Both the position numbers and the translations under genes were made by a program. This document shows positions 1,631 through 18,539 of a DNA stretch of 32,000 nt, in pieces. This stretch comes from Nostoc punctiforme PCC 73102 (lineage in GTDB: Bacteria > Cyanobacteriota > Cyanobacteriia > Cyanobacteriales > Nostocaceae), in contig NC_010628.1 of the NCBI RefSeq assembly GCF_000020025.1, forward strand, positions 6,840,001 to 6,872,000. The letters are read 5' to 3'. The notes beneath the pieces were generated by a model. That model was given only the letters and a program-made list of their open reading frames with translations. It had not been told where the DNA came from and ran no database searches. Numbering within the stretch: position 1 is the stretch's first letter; each line of letters begins with the position of its first letter.

Positions 1631-1966
1631 TTACTCGACAGCATAAGAAGTAAATTGGCGTTTAAAAGGAGAATGAAACCCAATCACAATATCAGAATGG
1701 GGTACACCTAACTCAACCAATCGTTCAGCAACAGACTCTTCTGTACCATTATACTGAATCCATATTTTCTCATTTTGAATATCAAAATGCATGACCGGGC
1801 CAAACACCCGCTTATCTCCTTGCCAGCCAACATAAGCTAGTTGATAATGGTCATTTTCATTGTCTAAAATTAATTGTGAATTTACTGTATCGGTATTAGA
1901 TGCTATTTGTTGATGTTCGCTCAATACTTGTTTGATAAGTTGTCGATAGCGTTCTATTTTATCCAT
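1631..1966 (-). CDS. xisI: XisI-family protein
   Basis: 111 aa. MDKIERYRQLIKQVL...HFDIQNEKIWIQYNGTEE...LVELGVPHSDIVIGFH matches the XisI family. Its ATG overlaps the end of the xisH reading frame (ATGGATAAAATAG), the usual xisH-xisI junction. Confidence 0.8.
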   Translation of the reverse strand: MDKIERYRQLIKQVLSEHQQIASNTDTVNSQLILDNENDHYQLAYVGWQGDKRVFGPVMHFDIQNEKIWIQYNGTEESVAERLVELGVPHSDIVIGFHSPFKRQFTSYAVE

Positions 1967-2417: not shown

Positions 2418-4244
2418 CTATGCAATGCGTTCCCCAAAGGGGTTGTCGTTCGTGCAGCGTGTCGTAGACAAGACATCGCACTCTCCATTATTCTGCATTG
2501 CTGTGGCAAGTTTTTCTAGATTTTGACTAATAGAGACACTACGGTGATGATTTACACCCCAGACTTGCTCACAAATATCTAAAGCTTGCAAATAAAGCGG
2601 TTCTGCTTCACCGTAACGTCCAGTTGCACGATAAATTTCTGCCAAATTATTGAGACTTTCGGCAACATTGGGATGATTTTCTCCCAATAGGTGCTTATCA
2701 AGTTCTAAGGCTTTTATACATAAAGATTCGGCTTCATTGTAGCGTCCTTGCTCCCTGTACATATAACCAAGAGCATAGATAGTATCTGCTAAAAGTGGAT
2801 GCGCCTTTTGCAATACACGCTGCTTCAGTTCCAAGGATTCTAAAAACAAAGATTCTGCTCGATCGTAGCGTCCTTGAGCGCGGTATATCAATCCTAAATT
2901 GTGCAAATCTGTTGCAACATCAGGATTCTCTTCTCCCAAAAATCGCTTATCTAATTCTATTGCTTGTTGCGACAATGGTTCAGCTTCAGTATAACGTCCT
3001 TGATGATAATAAAGTAGCGCTAAATTATTCAGTATAAGAGCGAAAGAAAGATGATTTTCACCAACCAAACGTTTTTCAAGTTCTAATGATTGCAGATACA
3101 GAGGTTCTGCTTCGTCATAACGTCCTTGCTCATCATATAGTAATGCCAAATTGTTCAGACTGACGGCGACATCCGCATGGTTTTCTCCCCACAAGCGTTT
3201 CCTCAGTTCCAAAGCTTGTTGATATAGGAGTTCCGCTTTAGCATATTGTCCAGTAGATTTGTAAAGTCCCGCCAAATTATTCAGGCTAGTAGCAAAAGAA
3301 GGATGATTGTCTCCTAGCAGGCGTTTCCTTAGTTCTAAAGCTTGTTTATATAAGGGTTCGGCTTCGCTGTACTGTCCTGTTGCACGATATATTCCAGCTA
3401 AATTGTTGAGACTATTAGCTAAATCTATCTGCAAACCTAATTCATTTTGTAGCTCACTCGCCTGTCGCCAATATTTAATTGCTAATTCCTGTTCTTCTTG
3501 ATAATTTTGAGATTCACCCCGATCTAATCTGCTGTGGTAAATATCGCCCAATCTTGAGTATAAAGTAGCCAATGTAGGGTCTTTAGTTCCCCGTTCTTGT
3601 TCTATTTTCTCGATTAGTTTTTGCAAATCTTGAATAGGCAAGAAAAAGGGGTTATTTTCATTAGTATCTGTGCTAGCTAATTCTGTGTCTCGAAAAACAA
3701 AGCGGATATTTTCTAATTCTTTACCAGGAATAGCATTTGTCTTTTGAGATTCAAACCGAAATACACCATTACGCCAACTCCAAAAATCAGGAGCTTTTTT
3801 AATTAGGTTGACTAAAATTTGATTAGTTACCCAAAGCACGATCGCAAATGGAAATTCGCGCAATCCTTCCCTTGTCCACTGTAAGTAACCAAAAAACTTT
3901 TCCTGTTCCGATTGCTCATTTCCCAACCTGAGAAAATAAAGTTGTTCAGCACCCGTCACAGTGATTACCGCCGGATTCTGCTGACGGAGATATTCTTCTT
4001 GTTGTACCAGTTGGTTAAGAGCAGCTTTTAGGCTCGGTTCCTGACGTGCTAAAGTCGCTCGATATGGATGGAAAGCAGGTTGTAGTTCAGCTTCATATTG
4101 AGCAATAATTTCATCGCGAAAGCTAGCATCATCGCAAACTGCAATCAGTAAGTTTAAGCCTCGTTTTTGAGCTTCAATAGAAACAATTAAATCATCATAC
4201 GCATCCTGATTTTCTCCTTCATCAAATAATTCTTCATTTAACAT
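2418..4244 (-). CDS. TPR-repeat protein: unassigned N-terminal domain of about 260 aa plus 7-8 kinesin-light-chain-type 42-aa TPR units
   Basis: 608 aa. The repeating unit is LNNLAxLYxxxGxYxEAEPLYxQALELxKRLLGxxHP, with 126-nt periodicity across about 2474-3452. The start overlaps the upstream ATPase stop by 11 nt (ATGTTAAATGA). Confidence 0.8.
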   Translation of the reverse strand: MLNEELFDEGENQDAYDDLIVSIEAQKRGLNLLIAVCDDASFRDEIIAQYEAELQPAFHPYRATLARQEPSLKAALNQLVQQEEYLRQQNPAVITVTGAEQLYFLRLGNEQSEQEKFFGYLQWTREGLREFPFAIVLWVTNQILVNLIKKAPDFWSWRNGVFRFESQKTNAIPGKELENIRFVFRDTELASTDTNENNPFFLPIQDLQKLIEKIEQERGTKDPTLATLYSRLGDIYHSRLDRGESQNYQEEQELAIKYWRQASELQNELGLQIDLANSLNNLAGIYRATGQYSEAEPLYKQALELRKRLLGDNHPSFATSLNNLAGLYKSTGQYAKAELLYQQALELRKRLWGENHADVAVSLNNLALLYDEQGRYDEAEPLYLQSLELEKRLVGENHLSFALILNNLALLYYHQGRYTEAEPLSQQAIELDKRFLGEENPDVATDLHNLGLIYRAQGRYDRAESLFLESLELKQRVLQKAHPLLADTIYALGYMYREQGRYNEAESLCIKALELDKHLLGENHPNVAESLNNLAEIYRATGRYGEAEPLYLQALDICEQVWGVNHHRSVSISQNLEKLATAMQNNGECDVLSTTRCTNDNPFGERIA

Positions 4245-5526
4245 TAATGGCTCCCTGTCTTTTCAAGCTTTCGATAATAATTGGATGAACATCATACCAA
4301 GTTTCATCAGTGCGATATTCTAGAACATACAGCCCATGTAACAAATCTAAAAACTCCGCTTGTTTCGGGTCATTGGGCATAAATTGTTCATAAACACTCT
4401 GCAAAATATCGATATCAGTTTTTCCTAAGCGTATCGAAAAATCATTGCGTATTTTATTGATTGCTTGCAGAAGAATTTTATCATCAATAATAACTTCGGC
4501 TGAGGGGTTTCGCCGGATAGTCCGCAAACAAATGCGGCAACATTCTTTAGAAATCCGAATTAACTCTCGCAATACGCCACCACTGTAAATCACAATTTTT
4601 TCAGCAGTTTCTGCTGCGATTAATTCATTGGGAATCCGCTTTTGTAAAACTTCACCAAGAATCTTTGTTGCTTCCCGGCGAGGTTGGGCATTAGGGAAGC
4701 GATTTTTACCTTTATCAAATATTTTTAAGACAGGCATTGCTACAACTTGATCGTTGGTTTCAGTAGCAATTATTGTGCTGATAAATGTTTCCCGAAGGAC
4801 TGCGATCGGAATAGTGTAAATAATTTGAAAGTTTGGTTGACAAAGAGCTTTAATGTTATCTCGATAAATTTCGTTAACTCTTCCTAAGTCAAGTTTGTCT
4901 AAATCATCAATAATTACTAAAACGTTTTGTTTAGTTGCAGCTTGAATTAGAGCAGCTATTTCGTTAATCCTTGCAACTAAATCTGATAACTTGCGTTCAA
5001 ACTCTTGCTTAATTTCATCTCGAACGCTAGCATCAGCTTTTAATTTAGAGCTAATCAACTTTAAGAGGTCAAAACCTATACTAACTTCTGCTTGTAAATT
5101 AGATTCTTCAGTGCGAGTGCGGGTAGCAAACCACTTATAAAGAGCTTCTTTAGTAGATTGCGGGATATCAACTTTGCGTGCTTCTGCCTCTGTCATTAAA
5201 TTAACTGCGATCGCAAACAGTATATTAATATGATTAACAGCCGACATTTCAATTTTATCGGCAATAGAAAACAGAACTACAAAATATTTATCTTGAATTT
5301 GTCGGCTAAATTCAGCTAATAAAGTAGACTTACCACATCCGCGATGTCCTGTAAAGACAATTTTGCCATCTCCATTAGGACTATCTTCCACTAATTGGTT
5401 CAGGTCTGCAATCAAATCATCACCATATTCGACTCGAAATCTTTCCATTTCATTCCGTTCCATCAACGGAAATAGTTCGAGATTACTGTATGCTTCTTGA
5501 AAGGAGTTTAATAAGTCTTCAGACAT
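4234..5526 (-). CDS. P-loop NTPase (AAA/STAND-like ATPase)
   Basis: 430 aa. Walker A is GHRGCGKST and Walker B is VLVIIDDLDKL, followed by a helical C-terminal region. It is translationally coupled to the TPR gene. Confidence 0.75.
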   Translation of the reverse strand: MSEDLLNSFQEAYSNLELFPLMERNEMERFRVEYGDDLIADLNQLVEDSPNGDGKIVFTGHRGCGKSTLLAEFSRQIQDKYFVVLFSIADKIEMSAVNHINILFAIAVNLMTEAEARKVDIPQSTKEALYKWFATRTRTEESNLQAEVSIGFDLLKLISSKLKADASVRDEIKQEFERKLSDLVARINEIAALIQAATKQNVLVIIDDLDKLDLGRVNEIYRDNIKALCQPNFQIIYTIPIAVLRETFISTIIATETNDQVVAMPVLKIFDKGKNRFPNAQPRREATKILGEVLQKRIPNELIAAETAEKIVIYSGGVLRELIRISKECCRICLRTIRRNPSAEVIIDDKILLQAINKIRNDFSIRLGKTDIDILQSVYEQFMPNDPKQAEFLDLLHGLYVLEYRTDETWYDVHPIIIESLKRQGAINVK

Positions 5527-5961: not shown

Positions 5962-6030
5962 GTAGAGACGGCGATTTATCGCGTCTCTCTAACGTGTCAA
6001 TTTTTTAGACGCGATAAATCGCGTCTCTAC
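5962..6030. repeat. Two GTAGAGACG...CGTCTCTAC-type hairpin repeats
   Basis: gtagagacggcgatttatcgcgtctctc lies at 5962-5989 and tagacgcgataaatcgcgtctctac at 6006-6030. The same arm sequence recurs at 10192-10219 and 26401-26438. Confidence 0.7.
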
Positions 6031-6045
6031 ATGAGATAAAGCTCC

Positions 6046-6255
6046 GCGACTTCAAAATTAGCTTTTGCGACTTCAAAATTAGCTTTTGCGACTTCAAAAT
6101 TAGCTTTTGCGACTTCAAAATTAGCTTTTGCAACTTCAAAACTAGCTTTTGCAACTTCAAAACTAGCTTTTGCGACTTCAAAACTAGCTTTTGCGACTTC
6201 AAAACTAGCTTTTGCGACTTCAAAACCTGCTTTTGTGACTTCCAAACCTGTTTTT
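6046..6255. repeat. Tandem array of 10 x 21 bp (gcgacttcaaaattagctttt and variants)
   Basis: The units were counted directly. Copies 1-4 are identical. Copies 5-6 carry gca/aaaacta variants. Copies 7-8 carry gcg/aaaacta. Copies 9-10 are degenerate. Each unit has caaaa/ttttg inverted arms. Confidence 0.95.
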
Positions 6256-6437
6256 CTCAAAGAATTTCAGCAAATATACCCGCATCTATCTAGTTGGCTA
6301 ATGCCATCCAATGCTTTTATAATTCTGTAACTTCACTGTGGCTGGTGCATCTGCTTGTTGCGTATTTTAATGATATATAAATAACTCAGTGTATAACATC
6401 GGGGTTATTTATAAATTAATTCAAATAGGAAAACTAT

Positions 6438-6806
6438 ATGACGCAACGGAAACGAAACTCCATGCCGCTGACCAAAGCTGAACGACGGATTGAAGGAATG
6501 CAGACAATTAACCCTCAGTTAGACTTTAGTAATGGGTTTTCAATTGCTACTTACAACACTAAAGTAATTGAGTTACGAGAGAAGCTAGCCGCTTATAATC
6601 AAGCACAAACAATAGTAGATAAGACACACAATGCATTAATGGAAGCAGAACGTGAGTTGAATACTTATTCTGAGCAAATGCTGTTGAATGTTGCATCTCG
6701 CTATGGCAAAAATAGTGATGAATATGAGATGGCTGGTGGAACGCGCAGGTCAGACCGCAAGAAACCACGCCCAGTAGTAAACCAAACAGTGGCATCTGTG
6801 AAGTGA
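6438..6806 (+). CDS. Hypothetical basic/coiled-coil protein (122 aa)
   Basis: ATG start with AGGA upstream. The composition is hydrophilic and protein-like, unlike the overlapping antisense ORF 6559-6858. No family was recognised. Confidence 0.4.
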   Translation: MTQRKRNSMPLTKAERRIEGMQTINPQLDFSNGFSIATYNTKVIELREKLAAYNQAQTIVDKTHNALMEAERELNTYSEQMLLNVASRYGKNSDEYEMAGGTRRSDRKKPRPVVNQTVASVK

Positions 6807-6864: not shown

Positions 6865-6990
6865 ACGATCCTATATTTTACCGCTTAACTTTTGAAGCGT
6901 CTCCAGAAACTTTTGACATCCCAAAATCGAATGCTGAGTGCGATCGCAAATAGACTAAGGATATCGTCAAACTCTAAATCAGACATAATC

Positions 6991-7812
6991 GTAGGTTGGG
7001 TTGAGGAACGAAACCCAACATCTACTTTAGGTTATTAGATTGCCCTTCACTCATTTCTTCTTAACTCACATCTCAAAAGCAATAATTTGACGGTATCATT
7101 TATAACCAGTAGTTTGGTATAAAGCCTGAAATATAACCATCATAAAATTAACTTAATGCAATATCGCCGAGCCACAATAGAAGGTGGCACTTATTTTTTT
7201 ACACTCGTAACACATAAAAGACAAAGACTATTATCCTTACCGACTAACGTATCTTTATTGAGAAATATTTTTCGAGATGTAATGCAACAACACCCATTTA
7301 TAATTGATGCCTTTGTTTTATTACCAGATCATCTGCACTGTCTTTGGACATTACCACAGGGCGATCGCAATTTTTCTACTCGTTGGCGTTTGATCAAAAG
7401 CTATTTTAGTCGCCAGTGCATTACTCTATCACAGGAAAACCTATCTACCTCTAGGCAAAATAAAAAAGAGCGGGCTATTTGGCAGCGTAGTTTTTGGGAA
7501 CACTTGATTAGAGACGAAGTAGATTTTAAAAATCACCTTGAATATATTCACTACAATCCTGTCAAACATGGTTTAGTGAAAGCTCCAAAAGATTGGGAAT
7601 ATTCCAGCTTTCATCGTTCTGTTCGTCAGGGTACGTATGATATTACGTGGGGTGCTGGGCAAGGAATTGTATTTGACTCTAATATCGGTAAAGAGTAAAT
7701 ATCGCCTAAATTGTAACTGAAATTGTAGGTTGGGTTAAACGAAGTGAAACCCAACATCAGCGTTGGGTATTGTGATGGGTAATGTTGGGTTTCGTTCCTC
7801 AACCCAACCTAC
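6991..7812 (+). mobile_element. RAYT unit: REP-associated tyrosine transposase gene flanked by REP (6991-7022) and REPIN (7725-7812) hairpins
   Basis: gtaggttgggttgaggaacgaaacccaacatc lies upstream. Downstream, gtaggttgggttaaacgaagtgaaacccaacatc is paired with the inverted copy gatgggtaatgttgggtttcgttcctcaacccaacctac. Confidence 0.75.
7156..7698 (+). CDS. REP-associated tyrosine transposase (RAYT, IS200/IS605 Y1 HUH family)
   Basis: 180 aa. The HUH motif is LPDHLHCLW. The catalytic-Tyr region is HLEYIHYNPVKHGLV. WQRSFWEHLIRDE is typical of RAYTs. Confidence 0.85.
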   Translation: MQYRRATIEGGTYFFTLVTHKRQRLLSLPTNVSLLRNIFRDVMQQHPFIIDAFVLLPDHLHCLWTLPQGDRNFSTRWRLIKSYFSRQCITLSQENLSTSRQNKKERAIWQRSFWEHLIRDEVDFKNHLEYIHYNPVKHGLVKAPKDWEYSSFHRSVRQGTYDITWGAGQGIVFDSNIGKE

Positions 7813-7963
7813 GAATTACTACTAAATCTAAGCGTGGCGTCTGTGTTTAGCTGGTTATAGAGTAATTTTGTAATTTTCTCGATAAATGATAAACAAACAC
7901 AATAAATAATTGTCCTGAAGTGGGAACACTAGACTTAGACATTGCTGGAAGTCAACCCACACT

Positions 7964-9298
7964 ATGAGCATGACAATTATCAGTCTTCGAGCGGCACTGC
8001 AAAGCCTGCCCGAAAATGCACCAGAACCTGTTATAAAAGACCTTTTCGCCCCTTACTTGTTGAGGTCATTAGGGTTTCAATCTGAAGAAATTCATCCTGA
8101 ATATAACACTGGTGACGGAGCTGTTGATAAAGCAGCCAGGAAAACTATTGGAGATGATGTCTTTTTACATACAAAATCTAATCCATACCTGCTACTGGAA
8201 TTGAAAGGGAGGGATATTAATTTATCTGAAGATGCTGCACAGTATCAAAGAACAGTTAATCAACTTAAACGTTACCTACTTGCACCTAATTGCAAAACAG
8301 TACAGTGGGGAATTATTACTAATTCTTGCCATATTCAACTGTTTCGCAAGCATGGAAAAGTGATTTATCCTGCTACACAGTGTCTTCCAATTGATGCAAA
8401 TAATATTGATAATGTAGTCGCTTCAATTAGGAAAAAAATTGAAAATCCTACAAAAGCCTTAACCATCGCGGTTTATAACAATAAAGGTGGAGTAGGTAAA
8501 ACAACAACTACCGTCAACTTGGCAGCTATCTTAACTTTTTTAGGGAAAAAGGTTTTAGCGATCGATTTCGATCCAAACCAACAAGATTTAACGAGTTCTT
8601 TAGGCCTTCCACTAAGCAAAGGTAGTGTATTTGAGGCTCTTAAGGAACGGGGTATAGAACTTCAAAGTACTCTACATCCTTATAAATTCCCCTTAAAGAA
8701 GCTTAATTCAGAACTTAGATTTGATATTATCCCTGCCGATCAAGAACTGATAGATGCACCTGAACAGCTCTTGCGTAATCATTTGCAACCTCACACTCTT
8801 TATCAAAAGCTAGAATTCTCAAGACAAGAATACGACTATATTTTGATAGATGCACCACCCAACTGGCGAGTGTTTAGCCAGCTAGGTGTATATGCGGCTG
8901 ATGTCGTTCTCATTCCCACTAAGCATAACAATCTTTTCTCTTTAGAAAATGCAGCAATAGCAATCAAGAAATTCATTCCTGAAGTCCAATCTACAAAAGC
9001 TGATGGTAGCCCCATTCCATTGCCAATTTTTTTCAATGGAGAAAAGATTACACTACCTCAGTTAGCAGTTGCTCAACAAGAAATTAATAATATTCTTAAA
9101 ACTGCTAAAAAAGAGGGATTTGATTTATTGCCTTACTTCTATCCCAGGTATACCAATGCCAAAAAAGACCTTCATATTCATGAGGTTCCAAGCTACGCTA
9201 ACATAGCTAGTTCAGCTTTCTCACGCACTCCTGCGGTTTATCGAGATCGATCTGCTCATGAATATTACAAAAATCTAGCAAAGGAGTATTTTTTATAA
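7964..9298 (+). CDS. Fusion protein: N-terminal PD-(D/E)xK / HsdR_N-like domain plus C-terminal ParA/MinD-type ATPase
   Basis: 444 aa. Residues 1-160 carry GAVD55, LLLE79LK81 and WGIITNSCHIQLF, the pattern of the type I restriction R-subunit N-terminal domain. The deviant Walker A KGGVGKTT sits at aa 174-181 (nt 8483-8506), followed by AIDFDPNQ and ILIDAPPN (Walker B). Confidence 0.7.
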   Translation: MSMTIISLRAALQSLPENAPEPVIKDLFAPYLLRSLGFQSEEIHPEYNTGDGAVDKAARKTIGDDVFLHTKSNPYLLLELKGRDINLSEDAAQYQRTVNQLKRYLLAPNCKTVQWGIITNSCHIQLFRKHGKVIYPATQCLPIDANNIDNVVASIRKKIENPTKALTIAVYNNKGGVGKTTTTVNLAAILTFLGKKVLAIDFDPNQQDLTSSLGLPLSKGSVFEALKERGIELQSTLHPYKFPLKKLNSELRFDIIPADQELIDAPEQLLRNHLQPHTLYQKLEFSRQEYDYILIDAPPNWRVFSQLGVYAADVVLIPTKHNNLFSLENAAIAIKKFIPEVQSTKADGSPIPLPIFFNGEKITLPQLAVAQQEINNILKTAKKEGFDLLPYFYPRYTNAKKDLHIHEVPSYANIASSAFSRTPAVYRDRSAHEYYKNLAKEYFL

Positions 9299-9984
9299 TG
9301 AGTAGCCTCAGCAATATTGGAAATTTGATGCATTTATATTTAGATGAAATTGACCCCGGCGAAGGAACTAATGCACCTGAATTTTTGATTAAAGCTTCAG
9401 CTCATTTGCTCAACCAGAAGGAGGGAAGAAATTGGATTCCAGTGATTGTGAAAGAAACTGGCAAAGATAAGTATCAAGTAATTGCTAACTCTTTCATTTA
9501 TGCAATCGCAGAGGCCGCTCGCTTAGATCGCGTTTGGTGCATTATTACTGATGGTAGTGATGAGACAGTTGAAGTCACAAAAGTACTAGCAAAAGAAGAA
9601 ATTCCAAAAATCAATCTCTCTAAGGCATCTAGAGATGAAATCATGGCAGCATTAGAATACTTAGTTGAACAACCAGGTAGTGTTCTTAAAGCAGTTAAAC
9701 CTGCTATAGCTACAAACCGGATTGATGAAGCTCCTCGTGAATATTGGAAGACATTAGATCCAATTCTTAATCTGAAATGTGGCATTACCAAAGGGAAAAA
9801 ACTTGATGCTTTAAATAAAGTTTTTTATCTAACTCCTCAACCAATGCCAGATACAATTACTGACACTGCTATTCTCCAAACAATGACAATAGCTGATTTA
9901 AAAGCGATCGCGAAGAAACGAGGAATTACTGGCATCACTAAGATGAAAAAAGACAATCTTGTTAAAGCATTGAGTAAACCTTAA
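9298..9984 (+). CDS. Degenerate ParB-like N-terminal domain protein with C-terminal Rho_N/SAP-like motif
   Basis: 228 aa. The start overlaps the upstream stop (TAATG). LYLDEIDP, WIPVIVKE and KYQVIANSFIYAIAEAARLDRVWCII follow ParB N-domain topology but lack the GxxRxxA arginine motif. The C-terminal ADLKAIAKKRGITGITKMKKDNLVKAL is Rho_N-like. Confidence 0.55.
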   Translation: MSSLSNIGNLMHLYLDEIDPGEGTNAPEFLIKASAHLLNQKEGRNWIPVIVKETGKDKYQVIANSFIYAIAEAARLDRVWCIITDGSDETVEVTKVLAKEEIPKINLSKASRDEIMAALEYLVEQPGSVLKAVKPAIATNRIDEAPREYWKTLDPILNLKCGITKGKKLDALNKVFYLTPQPMPDTITDTAILQTMTIADLKAIAKKRGITGITKMKKDNLVKALSKP

Positions 9985-10229: not shown

Positions 10230-10760
10230 CTAATAAGCGTCTTGCAACTCGTAGAAATCAGGCGAGATGTAATCCTTCCGCAAAGGCCAACCTACCCAAT
10301 CTTCCGGCATCAAAAGCCGCTTGAGATTTGGATGTCCTTCGTAGATAATGCCAAACATATCGTAAGACTCGCGCTCTTGCCAATCTGCGGTTTTCCAAAT
10401 CCAGTACACAGAAGGGACTACAGGATTTTCCCGTGGTAAGAACACCTTAACTCGAACTTCCTCGGGGCGATCGCTATTATCACCGACTTTAATCAAGTGA
10501 TACATACTCACCAATTCTTGTCCTGGGCCAAGGTCTATACCACCTTGACATTGGAGATAATTAAACCCGTAGGCATAAAGGGCTGTAGCGGTGGGAAGCA
10601 AGAAATCTGCCGACACCTTAATTATCTCTACACCATTCTTATCTGGTGCTAAAAACTCATGGTCAAAGCCATTTTCCGTCAACCACTGGGAAACTTTACC
10701 CGCTTGTACCAATGACTCTTCTTTCTCTGCTGGTACTGGTTTAGATTCTTCTTCAGCCAC
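10230..10760 (-). CDS. ndhJ: NAD(P)H-quinone oxidoreductase subunit J
   Basis: 176 aa. [36 protein letters not shown] is the NuoC/NdhJ signature. It overlaps ndhK by 8 nt. Confidence 0.95.
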
Positions 10761-11490
10761 GGGTTTGTTCCTCCTTTTGCGCCTTTTCTGTCAGCAGTGC
10801 AGGTGGTATTGGCATACCTATTGCTTCCGCCAATTCCTTCGGTGGTGCAGAGCGAGTATCTGACTGCAAATACTTACCAGTTAAGATTTCCTCTACTGGC
10901 TTCAGGTTATGAGTCGTGCTGTAGTAGCGGTGGGTTTGCTTAATTTTATCCCGCTCTTGAATCGACTCATTGGAGATTTTCTTCCGCAGCTTAATGATTG
11001 CGTCGATAATTGCTTCTGGACGGGGAGGACAACCAGGCAAATACACATCTACAGGGATCAGTTTATCGACTCCGCGCACTGCCGTGGGGGAATCAACGCT
11101 GAACATCCCGCCAGTAATTGTGCAAGCACCCATCGCAATTACATACTTCGGCTCTGGCATTTGTTCATAAAGACGCACCAGTTGGGGAGCCATCTTCATC
11201 GTAATAGTCCCTGCCGTAATAATTAAATCGGCTTGGCGGGGGCTAGAACGGGGAATCAGCCCAAAACGGTCAAAGTCAAATCGGGAACCAATTAAAGCTG
11301 CAAACTCAATAAAGCAGCAAGCAGTACCAAACAGTAACGGCCACAGACTAGAAAGCCGCGCCCAGTCGTAGAGGTCATCAACCGTCGTCAAAATGACGTT
11401 TTCTGAAAGGTCTTGAGTGACATTGGTTCGCTCAATAGGGTTGATGATTCGCTGTTTGTCCTGAGTTGTTAAATTAGAATTCAAGACCAT
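10753..11490 (-). CDS. ndhK: NAD(P)H-quinone oxidoreductase subunit K
   Basis: 245 aa. It carries the Fe-S ligand motifs [21 protein letters not shown] and LPGCPPRPE (NuoB/NdhK). Confidence 0.95.
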
Positions 11491-11843
11491 TCCAAAGCTC
11501 CTTTACGCCATGCGTAAACTAAAGCGACTACAAGAATTGCAATAAAGACTAGCGCTTCAATAAAAGCCAATAGCCCCAAACGGTGGAAAGCTACCGCCCA
11601 AGGATACAAGAATACAGTCTCCACATCAAAGACGACGAAGACTAGAGCAAACATGTAGTAACGGATGTTGAACTGAATCCAGGCTCCCCCGATGGGTTCC
11701 ATACCAGATTCATAAGTAGTGCGACGTTCTGGGGCATAACCACTAGGTCGTAGGAGCTTGGAAGCTGAGAGCGCTAAGGCAGGTACTAGGCTACAGATTA
11801 TGAAGAAGCCTAGAAGGTACTCGTAACCGCTGAGGACAAACAC
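11481..11843 (-). CDS. ndhC: NAD(P)H-quinone oxidoreductase subunit 3
   Basis: 120 aa with three hydrophobic segments. [40 protein letters not shown] is the NuoA/NdhC signature. Confidence 0.95.
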
Positions 11844-12014
11844 AATGAGTATCTACCGCTTAAGGTGTAATTGAAGTGGGGAGTGATGACTATGTACTAG
11901 GTACTAGAGACTGGGGACACTTCGACAAGCTCAGTGCATCGTTGGGTACTGGGTATAGGGAAATCCTTACTGAATCTCCAATCCCTCATCCCTAATACGA
12001 AATTCTTGATTTTT

Positions 12015-12041
12015 AATCCCCAATCCCCAATCCCCAATTCC
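12015..12041. repeat. STRR-type heptamer tandem repeat (AATCCCC x3 plus a variant; contains CCCCAAT)
   Basis: Read directly in the ndhC-rubA divergent intergenic region. CCCCAAT is the classical STRR1 unit of heterocystous cyanobacteria. Confidence 0.85.
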
Positions 12042-12223
12042 TAGTCTCCAATCCTTTAACTGCGTAACTTTCTTTTACATTATATCTGTTTGGTTTTTCT
12101 GAAATCTGGGAAATAGATACACTTCAAGTATTTAATTAGCTTTTGATAGTGATAGAAAAGCCTGACAATTATGTCATAATTTTTAACGTATATTTAAGAA
12201 TTCTCCTCTGCGAGGCCCTAGCC

Positions 12224-12559
12224 ATGAGCGAACCAGCTGTTGAGACTCCGGTGTTAGACCGCTACGAGTGTCGCGCCTGCGGTTATGTTTACGAACCTGA
12301 AAAGGGAGACGACAAGCATGATATTCCTTCAGGGATACTCTTTGCAGAACTGCCCACAAATTGGCGCTGTCCAGTTTGTAGTGCCAAGAAAACCGCTTTT
12401 GCCAACATCGGTCCTGCGGGTACTGCATCCGGCTTCAAAGAAAATCTCGGTTACGGTTTGGGTGTCAATAACCTAACGCCAAGCCAAAAGAATATCTTAA
12501 TTTTTGGCGCTTTGGCCCTTGGCTTCTTGTTTTTCATCAGTCTCTACGGCTTACAATGA
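12224..12559 (+). CDS. rubA: Membrane-anchored rubredoxin RubA
   Basis: 111 aa from ATG 12224 (MSEPAVETPVLDRYECRACGYVYEPEKGDD...WRCPVCSAKK). It has two CxxC pairs and a C-terminal TM helix (ILIFGALALGFLFFISLYGL). The track ORF begins at an upstream TTG that is unlikely to be used. Confidence 0.9.
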   Translation: MSEPAVETPVLDRYECRACGYVYEPEKGDDKHDIPSGILFAELPTNWRCPVCSAKKTAFANIGPAGTASGFKENLGYGLGVNNLTPSQKNILIFGALALGFLFFISLYGLQ

Positions 12560-12815
12560 CAGCCTTTATTTGGGAAATAGGGAGTTATTGTGTAATTAAA
12601 ATCACATAATTGTGCCGTTTTACCAGTTCCGTAGAGCGGCGATGACCCTCAATACCATATTGGGCTAAGATTTTTTGGGATTTTTGGAAAGCTTTTTAAT
12701 TCCAAATCTAAAATCGTTCGACTGAGCGAAGCCGAAGTCCAAAATCCGAAACTGGTATAAGGTAAACCTTTTAGAGAACACCTACAGAAATTTAGAAACA
12801 ACTTAAGAAATACTA

Positions 12816-13835
12816 ATGCATTCAATTGTGAAAGGTTGGCAAAGAATAGCTGCCTTGTTAATAGTAGTCATCATGTGCATCGGTTGTAGCAAAGTTCCTT
12901 CTGTTAGCTACAACCCTTGGAAAGTCATTTCTGTGCCAACAGACTCGAATCTACTGGATATTGCTTTTACTAATAACCCTGAGCATGGCTACTTAGTAGG
13001 TAGCAATGCCACCCTATTGGAAACCAATGACGGTGGTAATAGCTGGAAACCAATAACATTACAACTGGATGAGCAAAAGTATCGTTTTGACTCAGTAAGT
13101 TTTGCAGGCAAAGAAGGCTGGATTGCCGGAGAGCCTGGATTGTTGCTTCATACTACTGATGAAGGTGCTTCTTGGTCGCGTATTCCCCTGAGCGAAAAGC
13201 TACCAGGTAGTCCGATCGCAGTTAAGGCACTAGCAGACAATACAGCTGAAATGGCTACTAATGTTGGAGCCATATATAAGACCACAGACGGCGGCAAAAA
13301 CTGGAAAGCCCAGGTGGAATCAGCAGTGGGTGTGGTGCGTAACTTAGAGCGTTCTGCTGATGGTAAGTATGTTGCTGTTTCCGCTAAGGGTAGTTTCTAC
13401 TCGACTTGGGAACCAGGCCAAGATGCTTGGGTTCCCCATAACCGCAATAGTTCTCGGCGAGTAGAAAACATGGGCTTTGGTGACAATGGGCAATTGTGGT
13501 TGCTAGCTAGAGGAGGTCAAGTTCAGTTTAGTGACCCAACTAAACCTGAAGAATGGCAAGAGGCAAAATATCCAGAGTTATCTACCAGTTGGGGTTTACT
13601 GGATTTGGCATATCGCACACCCGAAGAAATTTGGGTAGGTGGCGGTAGCGGTAATTTGCTACGGAGTGCCGACGGTGGCAAAACCTGGGAAAAAGACCGT
13701 GACATAGAAGAAGTTGCAGCTAATTTGTACAAGATTGTGTTTTTGGAGCCAGAGCGGGGATTTATAATTGGCGATCGCGGCGTTTTGCTCAAATATCTAC
13801 CAAATCCTGAAATAACTTCCCCAGAGGCGGCTTAG
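12816..13835 (+). CDS. ycf48: Photosystem II assembly factor Ycf48/HCF136 (lipoprotein, beta-propeller)
   Basis: 339 aa. It has a lipobox-like signal (VIMCIGCSK). NPWKVISVPTDSNLLDIAFT...LLETNDGGNSW and repeated TxDGGxxW blades are typical. It occupies the conserved position between rubA and psbE. Confidence 0.9.
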   Translation: MHSIVKGWQRIAALLIVVIMCIGCSKVPSVSYNPWKVISVPTDSNLLDIAFTNNPEHGYLVGSNATLLETNDGGNSWKPITLQLDEQKYRFDSVSFAGKEGWIAGEPGLLLHTTDEGASWSRIPLSEKLPGSPIAVKALADNTAEMATNVGAIYKTTDGGKNWKAQVESAVGVVRNLERSADGKYVAVSAKGSFYSTWEPGQDAWVPHNRNSSRRVENMGFGDNGQLWLLARGGQVQFSDPTKPEEWQEAKYPELSTSWGLLDLAYRTPEEIWVGGGSGNLLRSADGGKTWEKDRDIEEVAANLYKIVFLEPERGFIIGDRGVLLKYLPNPEITSPEAA

Positions 13836-15506: not shown

Positions 15507-18500
15507 TTACATACCCAGGAGTTCATCTAGCTGCAAGTTTGGCAAGTCTGGAGGAATCACGGTTCGCACTATTGTGACTTTGTGGCTTTCTTGTTGAGTT
15601 GTCAAATCAAGTGCGATCGCTTCTATGCGAATTTCTAAACAGCCAAAGGGAATCTTTAATTGTGTCATTACTTCCAGACCTCCCAATACATTAGGTAGTA
15701 AATTTGTCAATAAATGGGGTCCATCTAGTAACCAGCGAGTTTGATAATCTTCAACCCATAACTTCACAACCACTTGGGGAGGAACTTCAGGCAGTACTAC
15801 GCGCACTATGATCAACTTGTCGGCGATTAGTTCGCCTTCTGGTACATACAGTTGCGGAATTGGCAAAGGCTCAATGGCACCCGCAGTTATGGATAGAGAA
15901 GGGGATAAAGCTAACAAAGGTTCCTTCTCTTCTTCTAAGAAGTAATTATTAGTTGCATCGGCTTCTAGTTCACTCTCTGTATCATCTACAACGATTTCTT
16001 GCGCCAACCAAGCTGACGCTATATTTACTTTTATGGGAGGAGGGGGAGGCGGTAGTTGTCTTACTAAAGCCATTGAAAGTGTTGATTCAGATACTTTTTC
16101 TATCGCCGTATCTTCCACTGTCTCTAGATCGGTTTCCTTTACTGTGTCTGTATCTTCCCCAAAGTTCTCAAGATCAAAAACTGACTCTTGGCTTTCTTCC
16201 CACGTCTCTGTGGCATCATCCAGACTTAATGGCAAGTTGACATCAACATCGGGAGTTCCAGCACTAAGAAAAAGCTGGGTCTGCTGGGCTGAAACATTGC
16301 TATCGTAGTTTTGAGATTCCAGTTCATTGATGGATTCAGGCAAAGAGTATCCTTGGCTCTGCATCCACTTCCTTAGTAAAGGAGATGAGTAGAGGTTGCC
16401 TGTTGTAATGAATTGTGCGTTTGGCTGGGTTTCTACCTCAGCAACAAATTCTTCCTGAAATTGTTCATTTGGCTGGGTTTCTACCTCAGCAACAGATTCT
16501 TCCTGAAATTGTGCATCATCTAGTACTAATTCCGGTACATTTTCATCCTCAGCTACAATTGCGTCTAACTGCGGGAAGTCTTCAGTCGCTTCAACTGCCA
16601 ATCTATCTGGGGGGACATTATTTTTGACTTCTTCTGCATGACCTGGCAAAGCTTGTACCCGTCTCAAGTATGGAAAAGTCGTATTGAGTATTGACATTCG
16701 ATGTTGCTTGATAACTAACTGCTCCAAGTTGATAGCAGCTATAGTAGTATCCTTTTCTACAAGCTCCTCTTGTGTAGGGGATTCTGCAATAACATCTGTG
16801 CGAGGGTTGGCATCGATTTGAAGAGGTGGCAATTTCGGCAATTGAGGCGAATTGCCTGAATTCTTTAAGTTAGATGTCCGCAGAGTGGTTTCTCGCAGAA
16901 CTTGCAGGTTAATTTGCGGCGGTAAAGCTGTATTTGGAGATGGATTGAGTATTTGAGATTGGTCTGTTTTTGAAATCTTGACCAGATTGAATAGTTTTAA
17001 ATCGATTCTCACTGCGGTCTCTGGCTCTGTGGAAGCATCAGGCGAGTCCGATGGGGCTATAGGGTCATTTAAGGATGTACTAGGTTTTGCTGCGGCTGTT
17101 ATTGCCAGTAATTCTGTTACATCTGCTGTAATGGTGAAGGACTGGCTAGCTAACCGGATGATTTCATCAACATCGGTGAATCGACCATACAAACTGATAT
17201 CTGCCAAAATTAACTTCGACTCAAAGTCAGCAGGAATATCAATTGAGGTATTGATGGTGAAGGGCAACTCCTGGTCTGGTAAGTGCCGTATCTGGGTCAA
17301 GATTTCCGACTCTAGGGGCGATCGCAGTTCAATTCCTAGTTCAAGCGCCTGCAAGCTTTTTGGAGATAATGTTTCACCCTGCTCTAAATTTGTCTTGTCT
17401 TTAAGTTCTATGCGCCCATTTATTGTAAGAGCTTGTCCCCAACGAGCAATATAACTATCTCGATCTAAAGTTAACAATAATGGTGGTTCTGTTGCTGGCG
17501 AATCTGTAACCTCTTCATCATTCAGAAGCAGTTCAGAATCGGGTAAAGCTAAATCTATTAAATTTTGTAAAATTTGCTCTGCCGTCTCACCTTTGAGCCA
17601 TACAGGACTTACAGGATCATCGATAACTATATCTTTTTCCGTTTCATCGGGAACAACTGTGGTGACAAGGTTGCTATCTGTAGCAATTTCCAATTTTGCC
17701 GAAACTGCGATCGCTTCATCTAGAGTAATTGCAGGCTCTTCCGGGGCAGTATCCAAGTTGCCTTCATCGGGAACAACTGTGGTGGCAGAGTTGCTATGTG
17801 TAGCAATTTCCAATTCTGCCGAAACTGCGATCGCTTCATCTAAAGTAATTGCAGCTTCTTCCGGGTCAGTATCCAAATTCTCTTCATCTGGAACAACTGT
17901 GGTGACAAGGTTGCTATCTGTAGCAATTTCCAATTTTGCCGAAACTGCGATCGCTTCATCTAGAGTAATTGCAGGCTCTTCCGGGGCAGTATCCAAGTTG
18001 CCTTCATCGGGAACAACTGTGGTGGCAGAGTTGCTATGTGTAGCAATTTCCAATTCTGCCGAAACTGCGATCGCTTTATCTAAGGTAATTACGAGTTCTT
18101 CTGGGGCGGTGCATTCCAAGTTTCCAGAAACAGTATCAGCCCGATCGGGTGAATTTAATTCTACATTTTTCCTTTGCTCTGCCTCTTCTTCCTCGGACAA
18201 TACTTTAATTTGGACACTGTATTGCCAAGATTTACCGAGTAAATCCGACATCAAATCGCCAGTACAGCGCAACTCCCAAACTCCCGTATCGAAGTAAGTA
18301 AAGGGAATTACCGCCATTAAGCCTTCTGAATTAGTGCGACGCGATCGCTTGAAAATTCGCCGCGTTGGTTGAACTTCCTGAGTTGAAGAGTGAGTTACCC
18401 GCACTTCCACGTCTGTATTAGAAAGGCTAGAACGAGCCAAAACTCTATACTGCCCTTCCAAAATTTCCAAATTTGGCGATTCTAGAATATGCCACGAGCG

Positions 18501-18539
18501 AGCGCCTTGTTTCTGTATCAGAAATTGCCAGTGTTCCAT
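15507..18539 (-). CDS. Large acidic repeat-containing hypothetical protein (1010 aa)
   Basis: This is the longest ORF in the window. It has ordered-looking N-terminal (about 120 aa) and C-terminal (about 130 aa) regions. The E/D/T/P-rich centre contains 4 x 40-aa repeats, a 2 x 16-aa repeat and a PPPPP run. No family was recognised. Confidence 0.75.
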   Translation of the reverse strand: MEHWQFLIQKQGARSWHILESPNLEILEGQYRVLARSSLSNTDVEVRVTHSSTQEVQPTRRIFKRSRRTNSEGLMAVIPFTYFDTGVWELRCTGDLMSDLLGKSWQYSVQIKVLSEEEEAEQRKNVELNSPDRADTVSGNLECTAPEELVITLDKAIAVSAELEIATHSNSATTVVPDEGNLDTAPEEPAITLDEAIAVSAKLEIATDSNLVTTVVPDEENLDTDPEEAAITLDEAIAVSAELEIATHSNSATTVVPDEGNLDTAPEEPAITLDEAIAVSAKLEIATDSNLVTTVVPDETEKDIVIDDPVSPVWLKGETAEQILQNLIDLALPDSELLLNDEEVTDSPATEPPLLLTLDRDSYIARWGQALTINGRIELKDKTNLEQGETLSPKSLQALELGIELRSPLESEILTQIRHLPDQELPFTINTSIDIPADFESKLILADISLYGRFTDVDEIIRLASQSFTITADVTELLAITAAAKPSTSLNDPIAPSDSPDASTEPETAVRIDLKLFNLVKISKTDQSQILNPSPNTALPPQINLQVLRETTLRTSNLKNSGNSPQLPKLPPLQIDANPRTDVIAESPTQEELVEKDTTIAAINLEQLVIKQHRMSILNTTFPYLRRVQALPGHAEEVKNNVPPDRLAVEATEDFPQLDAIVAEDENVPELVLDDAQFQEESVAEVETQPNEQFQEEFVAEVETQPNAQFITTGNLYSSPLLRKWMQSQGYSLPESINELESQNYDSNVSAQQTQLFLSAGTPDVDVNLPLSLDDATETWEESQESVFDLENFGEDTDTVKETDLETVEDTAIEKVSESTLSMALVRQLPPPPPPIKVNIASAWLAQEIVVDDTESELEADATNNYFLEEEKEPLLALSPSLSITAGAIEPLPIPQLYVPEGELIADKLIIVRVVLPEVPPQVVVKLWVEDYQTRWLLDGPHLLTNLLPNVLGGLEVMTQLKIPFGCLEIRIEAIALDLTTQQESHKVTIVRTVIPPDLPNLQLDELLGM
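16420..16515. repeat. Intragenic 48-bp tandem duplication
   Basis: tttggctgggtttctacctcagcaacaaattcttcctgaaattgttca is repeated with 2 substitutions. It encodes (E/A)QFQEE(F/S)VAEVETQPN twice. Confidence 0.9.
17641..18120. repeat. Intragenic 120-bp repeat x4 organised as a near-identical 240-bp A-B-A-B duplication
   Basis: The rows 17641/17761/17881/18001 align directly. A versus A' differs at 3 positions near the start. B versus B' is identical until about 18076. Each unit contains a HIP1 site. Confidence 0.95.

Follow-up and report, generated by a model that had tools for sequence, protein, structure and literature searches.

A cyanobacterial gene pair encoding a ParA-type ATPase with a predicted nuclease-fold domain and a ParB/Srx-like candidate adaptor

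The ATPases of the ParA/MinD group are positioning machines, and their output is movement, not chemistry. Within this group, the type Ia ParAs (P1 ParA, F SopA) carry an N-terminal DNA-binding helix-turn-helix (HTH) extension. Cyanobacteria, to which the genes described here belong, are polyploid. According to a 2020 review, these bacteria lack the classical ParABS mechanism (PMC7766704), and a 2025 survey of the ParB-CTPase fold defines LG(R/K)GL as the N-terminal motif by which ParB binds ParA (PMC12704722). Here we describe a pair of overlapping genes, ORF1 and ORF2, located in a window of 32,000 nucleotides (nt), i.e., the whole stretch of DNA analyzed, which exact matches assign to the chromosome of Nostoc punctiforme PCC 73102. 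The first gene codes for a ParA/Soj-type ATPase preceded by a domain of the predicted PD-(D/E)xK nuclease fold, and the second one for a candidate adaptor with a ParB/Srx-like N-terminal module. We propose, with a probability of roughly 45%, that the pair constitutes a partition-like system for the maintenance or positioning of its own replicon, in which the ParA bears a nuclease-fold, DNA-engaging domain.

An ORF check of the window confirmed both genes at the coordinates given in the initial annotation, 7964-9298 for ORF1 and 9298-9984 for ORF2, both on the plus strand. ORF1 (ACC83849.1) encodes a protein of 444 amino acids (aa) annotated in GenBank as "cobyrinic acid a,c-diamide synthase," and ORF2 (ACC83850.1) one of 228 aa annotated as "conserved hypothetical." Full-length homologues of each number in the hundreds, so neither ORF is due to chance. 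The TAA of ORF1 (9296-9298) and the ATG of ORF2 (9298-9300) have nt 9298 in common, and the resulting TAATG stop/start overlap (9296..9300, plus strand) can be read directly in the sequence. Upstream of the pair, at positions 7910..7953 of the same strand, lies a motif, TTGTCC...GGGAACACTAGACTTAGACATTGCTGGAAG, that is conserved in the clade of the N. punctiforme/Leptolyngbya type and is probably a promoter or leader.

The N-terminal part of ORF1 (7964..8455, plus strand; aa 1-164) was assigned to the restriction-endonuclease fold on the basis of a Pfam match and of conserved residues. HSDR_N_2 matched aa 21-130 of the full protein with 30.5 bits and the domain taken in isolation with 33.1 bits, the Pfam gathering cut-off being 25, and it was also matched by 11 of 14 diverse N-domains of the family. 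HSDR_N, MmeI_N, and PDDEXK_9 gave weaker matches. The putative active-site residues are D55 (GAT, 8126-8128), E79 (GAA, 8198-8200), K81 (AAA, 8204-8206), Q125 (8336-8338), and also E21. In 71 orthologous ORF1 sequences extracted from other genomes (47-96% identity), E79, K81, Q100, N120, and Q125 were invariant, and D55 was present in 70 of the 71. The mean column conservation across this panel was 0.68 for the N-domain and 0.70 for the ATPase domain. Distant versions borne on plasmids, which can be aligned along their full length at about 25% identity (E 1e-25 to 1e-31), also have the "PD," "ExK," and "Q" elements in register, and in an alignment of 14 sequences with 21-71% identity, which includes plasmid versions at 21-27%, the invariant columns comprise E21, D55, E79, K81, N120, and Q125. 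Outside the family, this domain is most closely related to the N-terminal module (28% identical) of a nuclease-methylase of 672 aa from a Skermanella plasmid, next to whose gene a restriction S subunit is encoded.

A sequence-profile search of the PDB found no significant sequence homologue of the N-domain. The AlphaFold2 models of both proteins are of low confidence, with predicted local distance difference test (pLDDT) values of 66.5 for ORF1 and 52.8 for ORF2; the family alignments behind them are shallow (at least 68% identity) and do not contain the divergent plasmid sequences. In the ORF1 model, the secondary-structure elements follow one another in a way compatible with an alpha-beta-beta-beta-alpha-beta core, at a pLDDT of only about 50-60 for the N-domain. 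A nuclease fold with conserved D/E/K residues at the N terminus of ORF1 is supported as far as its sequence reaches, its fold being weakly modelled, and the domain is apparently catalytic.

The remainder of ORF1 (8456..9298, plus strand; aa 165-444) is a ParA/Soj-type ATPase domain with a deviant Walker A motif. AAA_31 matched aa 167-343 with 118 bits (cut-off 27), and CbiA and MipZ scored 47 (25.4) and 39 (20.7), respectively. The Walker A motif KGGVGKTT (8483-8506; aa 174-181), with its signature K174 and K179, is accompanied by the motifs AIDFDPNQ and ILIDAPPN. Since K174, K179, D201 and D203 of the A' motif, and D296 of Walker B are invariant in the 71 orthologues, we judge ORF1 to be ATPase competent. 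The best PDB sequence matches of this domain are the Soj proteins of Helicobacter pylori and Thermus (E 1e-20 for H. pylori Soj), and the top structural neighbours of the ORF1 model in Foldseek are the same two Soj proteins, ParA, and Cyanothece McdA; the Foldseek list for the full-length model was filled by ParA matches. As HSDR_N_2 and AAA_31 both exceed their Pfam cut-offs, the nuclease-fold/ParA fusion claimed in the initial annotation is upheld, and so is the conservation of D55, E79, and K81, found in 70-71 of the 71 orthologues and kept in plasmid versions of 21-27% identity. At the same time, ORF1 falls below the NCBIfam equivalog cut-off for canonical ParA_partition (67.5 versus 180 bits).

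A separate observation concerns the codons of the Walker A motif, which in the ORF1 orthologues of one Microcoleaceae/Lyngbya subclade contain a run of G residues. This run is G8 and in frame in one locus (L060), G9 in another (L049, 7176-7218), and G7 in a third (L083, ~6090-6130). The length differences reflect either phase variation or homopolymer sequencing error.

ORF2 is built of three modules. The first (9298..9597, plus strand; aa 1-100) is predicted to have a ParB/Srx-fold topology, as judged from Foldseek, a sub-threshold ParB_N match, and distant relatives. ParB_N scored 18 bits, under the Pfam cut-off of 26.3, and nothing significant was obtained when the PDB was searched with the sequence profile of ORF2. 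The significant Foldseek matches of the ORF2 model (pLDDT 53) were all of the ParB/Srx fold: ParB, Noc, KorB, PadC, sulfiredoxin, and SbnI/serine kinase. When 1.84 billion representatives were searched exhaustively with a profile, 357 relatives came to light; in three distant ones (P0374, P0382, and P0376) the matched segment overlaps a sub-threshold ParB_N, and others have ParB_N above the cut-off, at up to 48 bits, elsewhere in the protein. Moreover, PVIVKE..KYQVIANSFIYAIAEAARLDRVWCII of ORF2 can be aligned by eye with PLIVRK..GYDIVAGERRFRAAKLAGLDTVPAIV, which we take to be the box I/II region of ParB. On the strength of the Foldseek list, the distant ParB_N-bearing relatives, and this alignment, the N-module can be placed, provisionally, in the ParB/Srx superfamily.

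The position of ParB box II is occupied in ORF2 by A-N-S-F-I-Y-A (9484-9504, plus strand; aa 63-69). All 84 orthologues examined have [G/A]-N-[S/T]-F-[I/V]-Y-A at this place, with N64 and F66 invariant, and none of them has Arg or Lys at positions 64-68, i.e., the arginines of the CTP-binding GxxRxxA motif are absent. N-S-F-I-Y-A is a replaced, strictly conserved motif rather than a decaying one. The initial annotation had described a ParB-like N-module devoid of the CTP-binding arginines, which the conservation of N-S-F-I-Y-A across the 84 orthologues bears out. At the place of LG(R/K)GL of ParB, ORF2 has a conserved N-terminal peptide of the form hydrophobic-G8-x-L10-hydrophobic.

The middle module of ORF2 (9604..9846, plus strand; aa ~103-183), to be compared with the central HTH of ParB, is helical, has no Pfam match, and is modelled with low confidence. 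It is followed, in place of the ParB dimerization domain, by a Rho_N/SAP/HeH-type tail (9874..9972, plus strand; aa 193-225), for which Rho_N scored 35.1 bits against a Pfam cut-off of 24.9, with SAP and HeH below threshold; the Rho_N tail noted in the initial annotation is therefore real by the Pfam standard. It is missing from the distant plasmid-type partners, and for this reason we regard the N-module and the middle module as the conserved core of ORF2. Taken with the ParA_partition score of ORF1 (67 bits versus 180), the failure of ORF2 to match ParB boxes I-III agrees with the earlier view that the pair is not a canonical housekeeping ParAB.

Two variations on the architecture of ORF2 were seen among its relatives. 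In the homologues from Trichodesmium, Dapis, and Acaryochloris pREB8 (P0169, P0220, and P0160; L089 7001-7921), the middle module is tandemly duplicated. An N-module of the ORF2 type also occurs inside larger proteins with Mu-type portal, ADP-ribosyltransferase, or GNAT domains (P0401, P0408, and P0365), in what look like phage or mobile-element contexts.

We then determined the distribution of the pair. The pair is present in at least 185 species: with one genome scanned for each GTDB species, 185 loci encoding an ORF2 relative were found, a lower bound, as the census rests on two exact peptide patterns. Among the 80 of the 185 loci that were listed, the titles were either cyanobacterial or an uninformative "uncultured bacterium," and the listed loci span the Nostocales, Leptolyngbyales, Elainellales, Oscillatoriales/Microcoleaceae, Pleurocapsales, and Spirulinaceae. 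The pair is restricted to cyanobacteria, where it resides on both chromosomes and plasmids. Many copies are on chromosomes of several megabases; some short metagenomic contigs tallied as "chromosomal" could be plasmids.

The adjacency of the two genes is obligate. A fused ParA was found directly upstream of the ORF2 homologue in 79 of 84 distinct loci, the remaining five being interrupted by a contig edge or the insertion of an insertion sequence (IS). In 61 of the 79 readable loci, the two genes overlap by 4 nt (ATGA), and most of the others have an overlap of 1-17 nt or a gap of 7-16 nt; two larger gaps were caused by a frameshifted ORF1. Together with the TAATG of N. punctiforme, the 4-nt overlap usual in related loci argues for the translational coupling put forward in the initial annotation. 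The two proteins have also diverged together, since their pairwise distances correlate with r = 0.87; for the distances of the N-domain and the ATPase domain, r is 0.84. Clustering of all flanking ORFs of the 84 loci yielded no third gene that recurs beyond the synteny of close relatives. The flanking genes vary, from those for topoisomerase, gyrase, and serA through toxin-antitoxin, HNH, and Uma2 to IS genes.

In six Nostoc genomes, the pair is found at the same site, beside ndhJ-ndhK-ndhC, rubA, and ycf48, and shows 88-91% amino-acid identity to that of the window, the corresponding range for the flanking genes being 84-97%. In Nostoc, the pair has a ratio of nonsynonymous to synonymous substitution rates (dN/dS) of 0.14-0.28, and its neighbours have one of 0.06-0.29. 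The pair is thus stable, vertically inherited, and under purifying selection in the Nostoc clade, unlike fast-turnover defence genes. The synonymous rate (dS) itself was 0.22-0.36 for ORF1 and ORF2, below the 0.41-0.56 of ndhJ, ndhK, and ycf48 in the same genome pairs (7964-9984 versus 10230-13835; L008-L011).

Taxonomy was reflected only in part by a neighbour-joining tree of the family. In this tree, the clade of N. punctiforme is nested in one of the Leptolyngbya/Elainellales type, and a separate clade consists of Scytonema, Fischerella, and Nodularia, from which we conclude that there has been transfer or paralogue sorting inside the phylum. Several copies have decayed, through an IS insertion (L042) or through frameshifts or deletions (L017, L050, L072, and L078). 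Because of these decayed copies and of the patchy distribution, with transfer between orders, we consider the module accessory and dispensable in some lineages.

The plasmid-borne copies were collected by a tblastn search against 72,556 plasmids. The superfamily was present on eight plasmid records, representing seven distinct plasmids, all of them cyanobacterial. The full pair is carried by unnamed4 and unnamed9 of Nostoc sp. UHCC 0870 and by pREB8 of Acaryochloris marina. A distant version, with an ATPase of 461-480 aa and a partner of ~180 aa, is found on unnamed10 of the same Nostoc strain, and the distant version is also present on pLBA of L. boryana (two strains) and on pPg_01 and ABRG53g of Pseudanabaena. 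The plasmid pairs adjoin genes for resolvase-type integrases, KorA, toxin-antitoxin-like proteins, and other par genes, and they occupy the stability/maintenance regions of their plasmids.

Of particular relevance are the three co-resident plasmids of strain UHCC 0870 (unnamed4, 9, and 10; L087, L088, and L091). Their backbone genes are 94-97% identical, while the modules of unnamed4 and unnamed9 are 53/58% identical to each other and 25-33% identical to that of unnamed10. Such a divergence between sibling plasmids is expected if the module sets replicon-specific identity or partition specificity between co-resident replicons.

On pREB8, the long-ParA pair is separated from a short ParA pair by an array of about 750 nt of GTAAGTCT-like 8-nt iterons (L089 8078-8822). 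This array is a candidate centromere, whose ownership is ambiguous since the second, short ParA adjoins it. The phage genomes searched contained no copy of the pair, and the single IMG/VR match was on a contig that also encodes Rad52-family, HD-domain, and ImmA/IrrE-type proteins and looks like a mobile element. An origin of the chromosomal loci from integrated plasmids was considered and found unsupported, none of these loci containing plasmid backbone genes.

From these data we infer a partition role for the pair, with DNA binding by ORF2 and stimulation of the ATPase. In this scheme, the adaptor (ORF2) would bind the DNA of the replicon that encodes it, be it the copies of the polyploid chromosome or a plasmid, and ATP-bound dimers of the ParA (ORF1) would coat the nucleoid. 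On contact, the adaptor would cause the ParA to hydrolyze its ATP and be released. The nuclease-fold domain may lend the ParA a further means of engaging, and possibly of cutting, DNA. The reported lack of a classical ParABS mechanism in cyanobacteria (PMC7766704) counts in favour of such a partition-like role. A more ambitious version, according to which the pair is the long-missing system that partitions the chromosome copies of many polyploid filamentous cyanobacteria, is a speculative one that we rate about as low as the self/non-self device considered below.

Several observations weigh against the partition-like role. A purely DNA-anchoring function of the N-domain leaves unexplained why a complete nuclease active site should be so strictly conserved. 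A classical short ParA/ParB or ParM system is also present on four of the seven distinct plasmids, so that the role of the module may be another than partition; neither the intact nuclease site nor this co-residence is accounted for by a partition-like role. In the 350 nt flanking each of 68-69 operons on both sides, the chromosomal operons were found to share no parS-like repeats, and the search for shared motifs near the operons gave only the genome-wide HIP1 palindrome and the clade-limited upstream motif. Position 9 of ORF2 is N, S, H, K, or T, i.e., the conserved basic residue of the ParA-activating LG(R/K)GL is not there. Both AlphaFold models are of low confidence, and the patchy distribution, the transfer between orders, and the decayed copies point to a dispensable module. 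The initial annotation had also raised the converse possibility, that homologues might prove to be ordinary type I partition loci of plasmids. The homologues do occur on plasmids, but "ordinary type I par" is not established, because most copies are chromosomal and several plasmids carry a classical par system as well.

The points left unexplained by partition are those that a conflict between replicons would explain. A ParA-gated nuclease acting in defence, exclusion, or incompatibility, in which ATP-dependent ParA dimers unite two PD-(D/E)xK domains to cut and a partner bound to the cognate replicon triggers hydrolysis and so spares self DNA, is in our estimate about half as likely as the partition-like role. 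It would account for the retention of a complete E/D/ExK/Q site down to 21-27% identity, for the classical par systems on the same plasmids, and for the divergent versions on sibling plasmids. The kinship of the N-domain with a restriction-modification nuclease-methylase module that has an adjacent S subunit fits it too, as do the patchy distribution with horizontal transfer and decay and the HNH, Uma2, toxin-antitoxin, or IS genes near some chromosomal copies. A somewhat more doubtful elaboration is a self/non-self device, in which ParA-ATP dimers scanning DNA would pair two restriction-type nuclease domains and only replicons loaded with the cognate adaptor would escape through ATP hydrolysis and dimer dissociation. 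Chromosomes and plasmids would then exclude competitors by means of divergent versions, which would explain the active site, the co-residence with classical par, and the divergence between sibling plasmids. Against a conflict nuclease, however, PADLOC-DB 2.0 gave for ORF1 only a 45-residue Walker A match to PDC-M28B and for ORF2 no match, so that no defence family is recognized past the P-loop. No recurrent neighbour family, and with it no recurrent placement in defence islands, was found at the 84 loci, and phage-borne copies are lacking. The family is limited to one phylum, its identity across orders is high, its dN/dS is like that of the neighbouring photosynthesis genes, and its synteny beside ndhJKC is stable. 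Of the DNA-directed conflict or element-maintenance module envisaged in the initial annotation, the maintenance half agrees with the location of the plasmid copies in maintenance regions, whereas the conflict half is contradicted by the missing PADLOC, phage, and recurrent defence associations, by the slow, purifying evolution, and by the confinement to one phylum.

The intact nuclease site and the integrase/resolvase-type and Rad52/Rad22-family genes adjoining the plasmid copies would also suit a structure-specific nuclease targeted by the ParA and its adaptor to DNA processing on multicopy replicons, for example to multimer resolution/recombination or break repair. Such neighbours are, however, generic genes of plasmids or mobile elements and are absent at the chromosomal loci, and HSDR_N_2 is not known as a family of junction resolvases; we regard this explanation as improbable. 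Still less probable is a McdAB-like role, in which a cargo other than DNA would be positioned on the nucleoid with ORF2 as its adaptor. ParA-type systems do serve carboxysomes in cyanobacteria (PMC6328274, PMC7182216), the ATPase domain has Cyanothece McdA as one of its structural neighbours, and ORF2 is devoid of the classical DNA-clamp motifs of ParB. On the other hand, the pair is found on plasmids and on a mobile-element contig, it is not linked to any cargo operon, ORF2 does not have the coiled coil and disordered extensions that are the hallmarks of McdB (PMC7182216), and a nuclease-fold domain together with a SAP/Rho_N tail suggests nucleic acid. Finally, the pair in the N. punctiforme chromosome could be the functionless remnant of an integrated plasmid, given its relatives on plasmids, the decayed copies in some genomes, and the nesting of the N. 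punctiforme clade in the Leptolyngbya-type clade. With both ORFs intact, a dN/dS of 0.14-0.28, synteny in six Nostoc genomes, and plasmid backbone genes not nearby, there is very little to recommend this last explanation. The partition-like maintenance or positioning of the own replicon remains the best-supported proposal.

In the window, a RAYT-type Y1 transposase gene lies upstream of ORF1 (7156-7698; Y1_Tnp 28.7 bits versus a cut-off of 23) and is bracketed by perfect 33-nt inverted repeats (6989-7021 and 7782-7814) in the style of a REP/RAYT unit. The initial annotation had taken this accessory stretch beside a RAYT as meaningful context. It proved to be incidental, and a functional link between the RAYT and the pair was rejected, since the RAYT has its own inverted repeats and is not conserved beside the pair in other genomes. 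The block made up of the RAYT gene and the pair is flanked on both sides by palindromic dispersed elements of two kinds (6827-6866/10021-10061 and 5971-6031/10191-10217); they are probably genome-wide short dispersed repeats of Nostoc and not the ends of an element. An intergenic tandem array with a period of 21 nt and about 13 units (6004-6276) yields spurious heptad-repeat ORFs on the minus strand.

The same variable patch contains, just upstream, an XisI-family gene (1631-1966, minus strand) and two overlapping genes (2418-4244 and 4234-5526, both minus strand). One of these two codes for a large TPR protein and the other for a P-loop NTPase of the AAA_16/KAP-like type, which makes their arrangement STAND-like. 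Nearer to the pair, and about 2 kb before it, is a gene for a 122-aa protein without a significant family match (6438-6806, plus strand), which is kept in seven Nostoc/Aulosira loci and absent outside that clade. A 1,010-aa ORF (15507-18539, minus strand) had no Pfam match at E <= 1e-4. The remaining genes of the window are those of an ordinary chromosome and include genes for a Tic20-like protein, RpsF, ArgG, PhoX, and RecG.

The full-text literature searched, accession numbers included, contained no description of the ORF1-ORF2 family, and within the limits of that literature the pair appears to be an undescribed variant of the ParA-plus-adaptor kind. The 2025 survey mentioned above used the Pfam gathering cut-off and does not mention the family (PMC12704722); ORF2 escaped it because it is under the ParB_N cut-off used there. 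In this family, a restriction-endonuclease domain that appears to be catalytically competent is joined to a ParA, and the partner of the fusion would be a ParB-fold protein whose CTP-switch motif has been exchanged for another invariant motif. Either feature would widen the known scope of ParA/ParB-type systems. Since these polyploid bacteria are described as being without the classical ParABS mechanism (PMC7766704), a phylum-specific pair is a concrete candidate for replicon positioning or replicon competition.

Among known proteins, the endonuclease domains of type I HsdR and of type IIG (MmeI-like) enzymes belong to the same Pfam clan and families as the N-domain of ORF1 and have the same E...D...ExK...Q set. 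In ORF1, however, this domain is joined to a ParA ATPase and not to a helicase-type motor or a methyltransferase, and it has no linked methylase or specificity subunit. The McdA/McdB system is likewise a two-gene unit of a cyanobacterial ParA-type ATPase and a small partner, McdB being non-ParB-like and McdA a structural neighbour of ORF1. McdA is nevertheless without a nuclease-fold domain, ORF2 is not related to the disordered/coiled-coil McdB, and the linkage to carboxysome genes that is frequent for Mcd loci is not seen for the pair described here. An identity of the pair with McdAB was rejected, as ORF2 is predicted to be a folded, ParB-like protein of several modules with no carboxysome linkage (features of McdB according to PMC7182216).

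The ATPase of ORF1 is most like Soj in the Soj/ParA-Spo0J/ParB system, and ORF2 finds ParB, Noc, KorB, and PadC in Foldseek. In contrast to Spo0J/ParB, ORF2 has the invariant N-S-F-I-Y-A instead of the GxxRxxA arginines and a Rho_N/SAP-type C terminus, and the NPxQPR and ENLQR boxes are not seen. With the type Ia ParA/ParB and SopA/SopB systems, the pair shares a deviant Walker A ParA with a DNA-engaging N-terminal extension of ~100-160 aa, a gene placed upstream of that for the adaptor in a two-gene operon, and residence on low-copy replicons. It departs from these systems in ORF2, which is without ParB boxes I-III and apparently without a dimerization domain, in the chromosomal operons, near which no centromere was found, and in the ATPase core of ORF1, which is nearer to the chromosomal Soj. 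The extension itself is also different: a winged HTH in type Ia, it would in ORF1 be a PD-(D/E)xK domain (HSDR_N_2) with an intact catalytic motif. The nuclease-fold domain of ORF1 occupies the position that the HTH extension has in a type Ia ParA.

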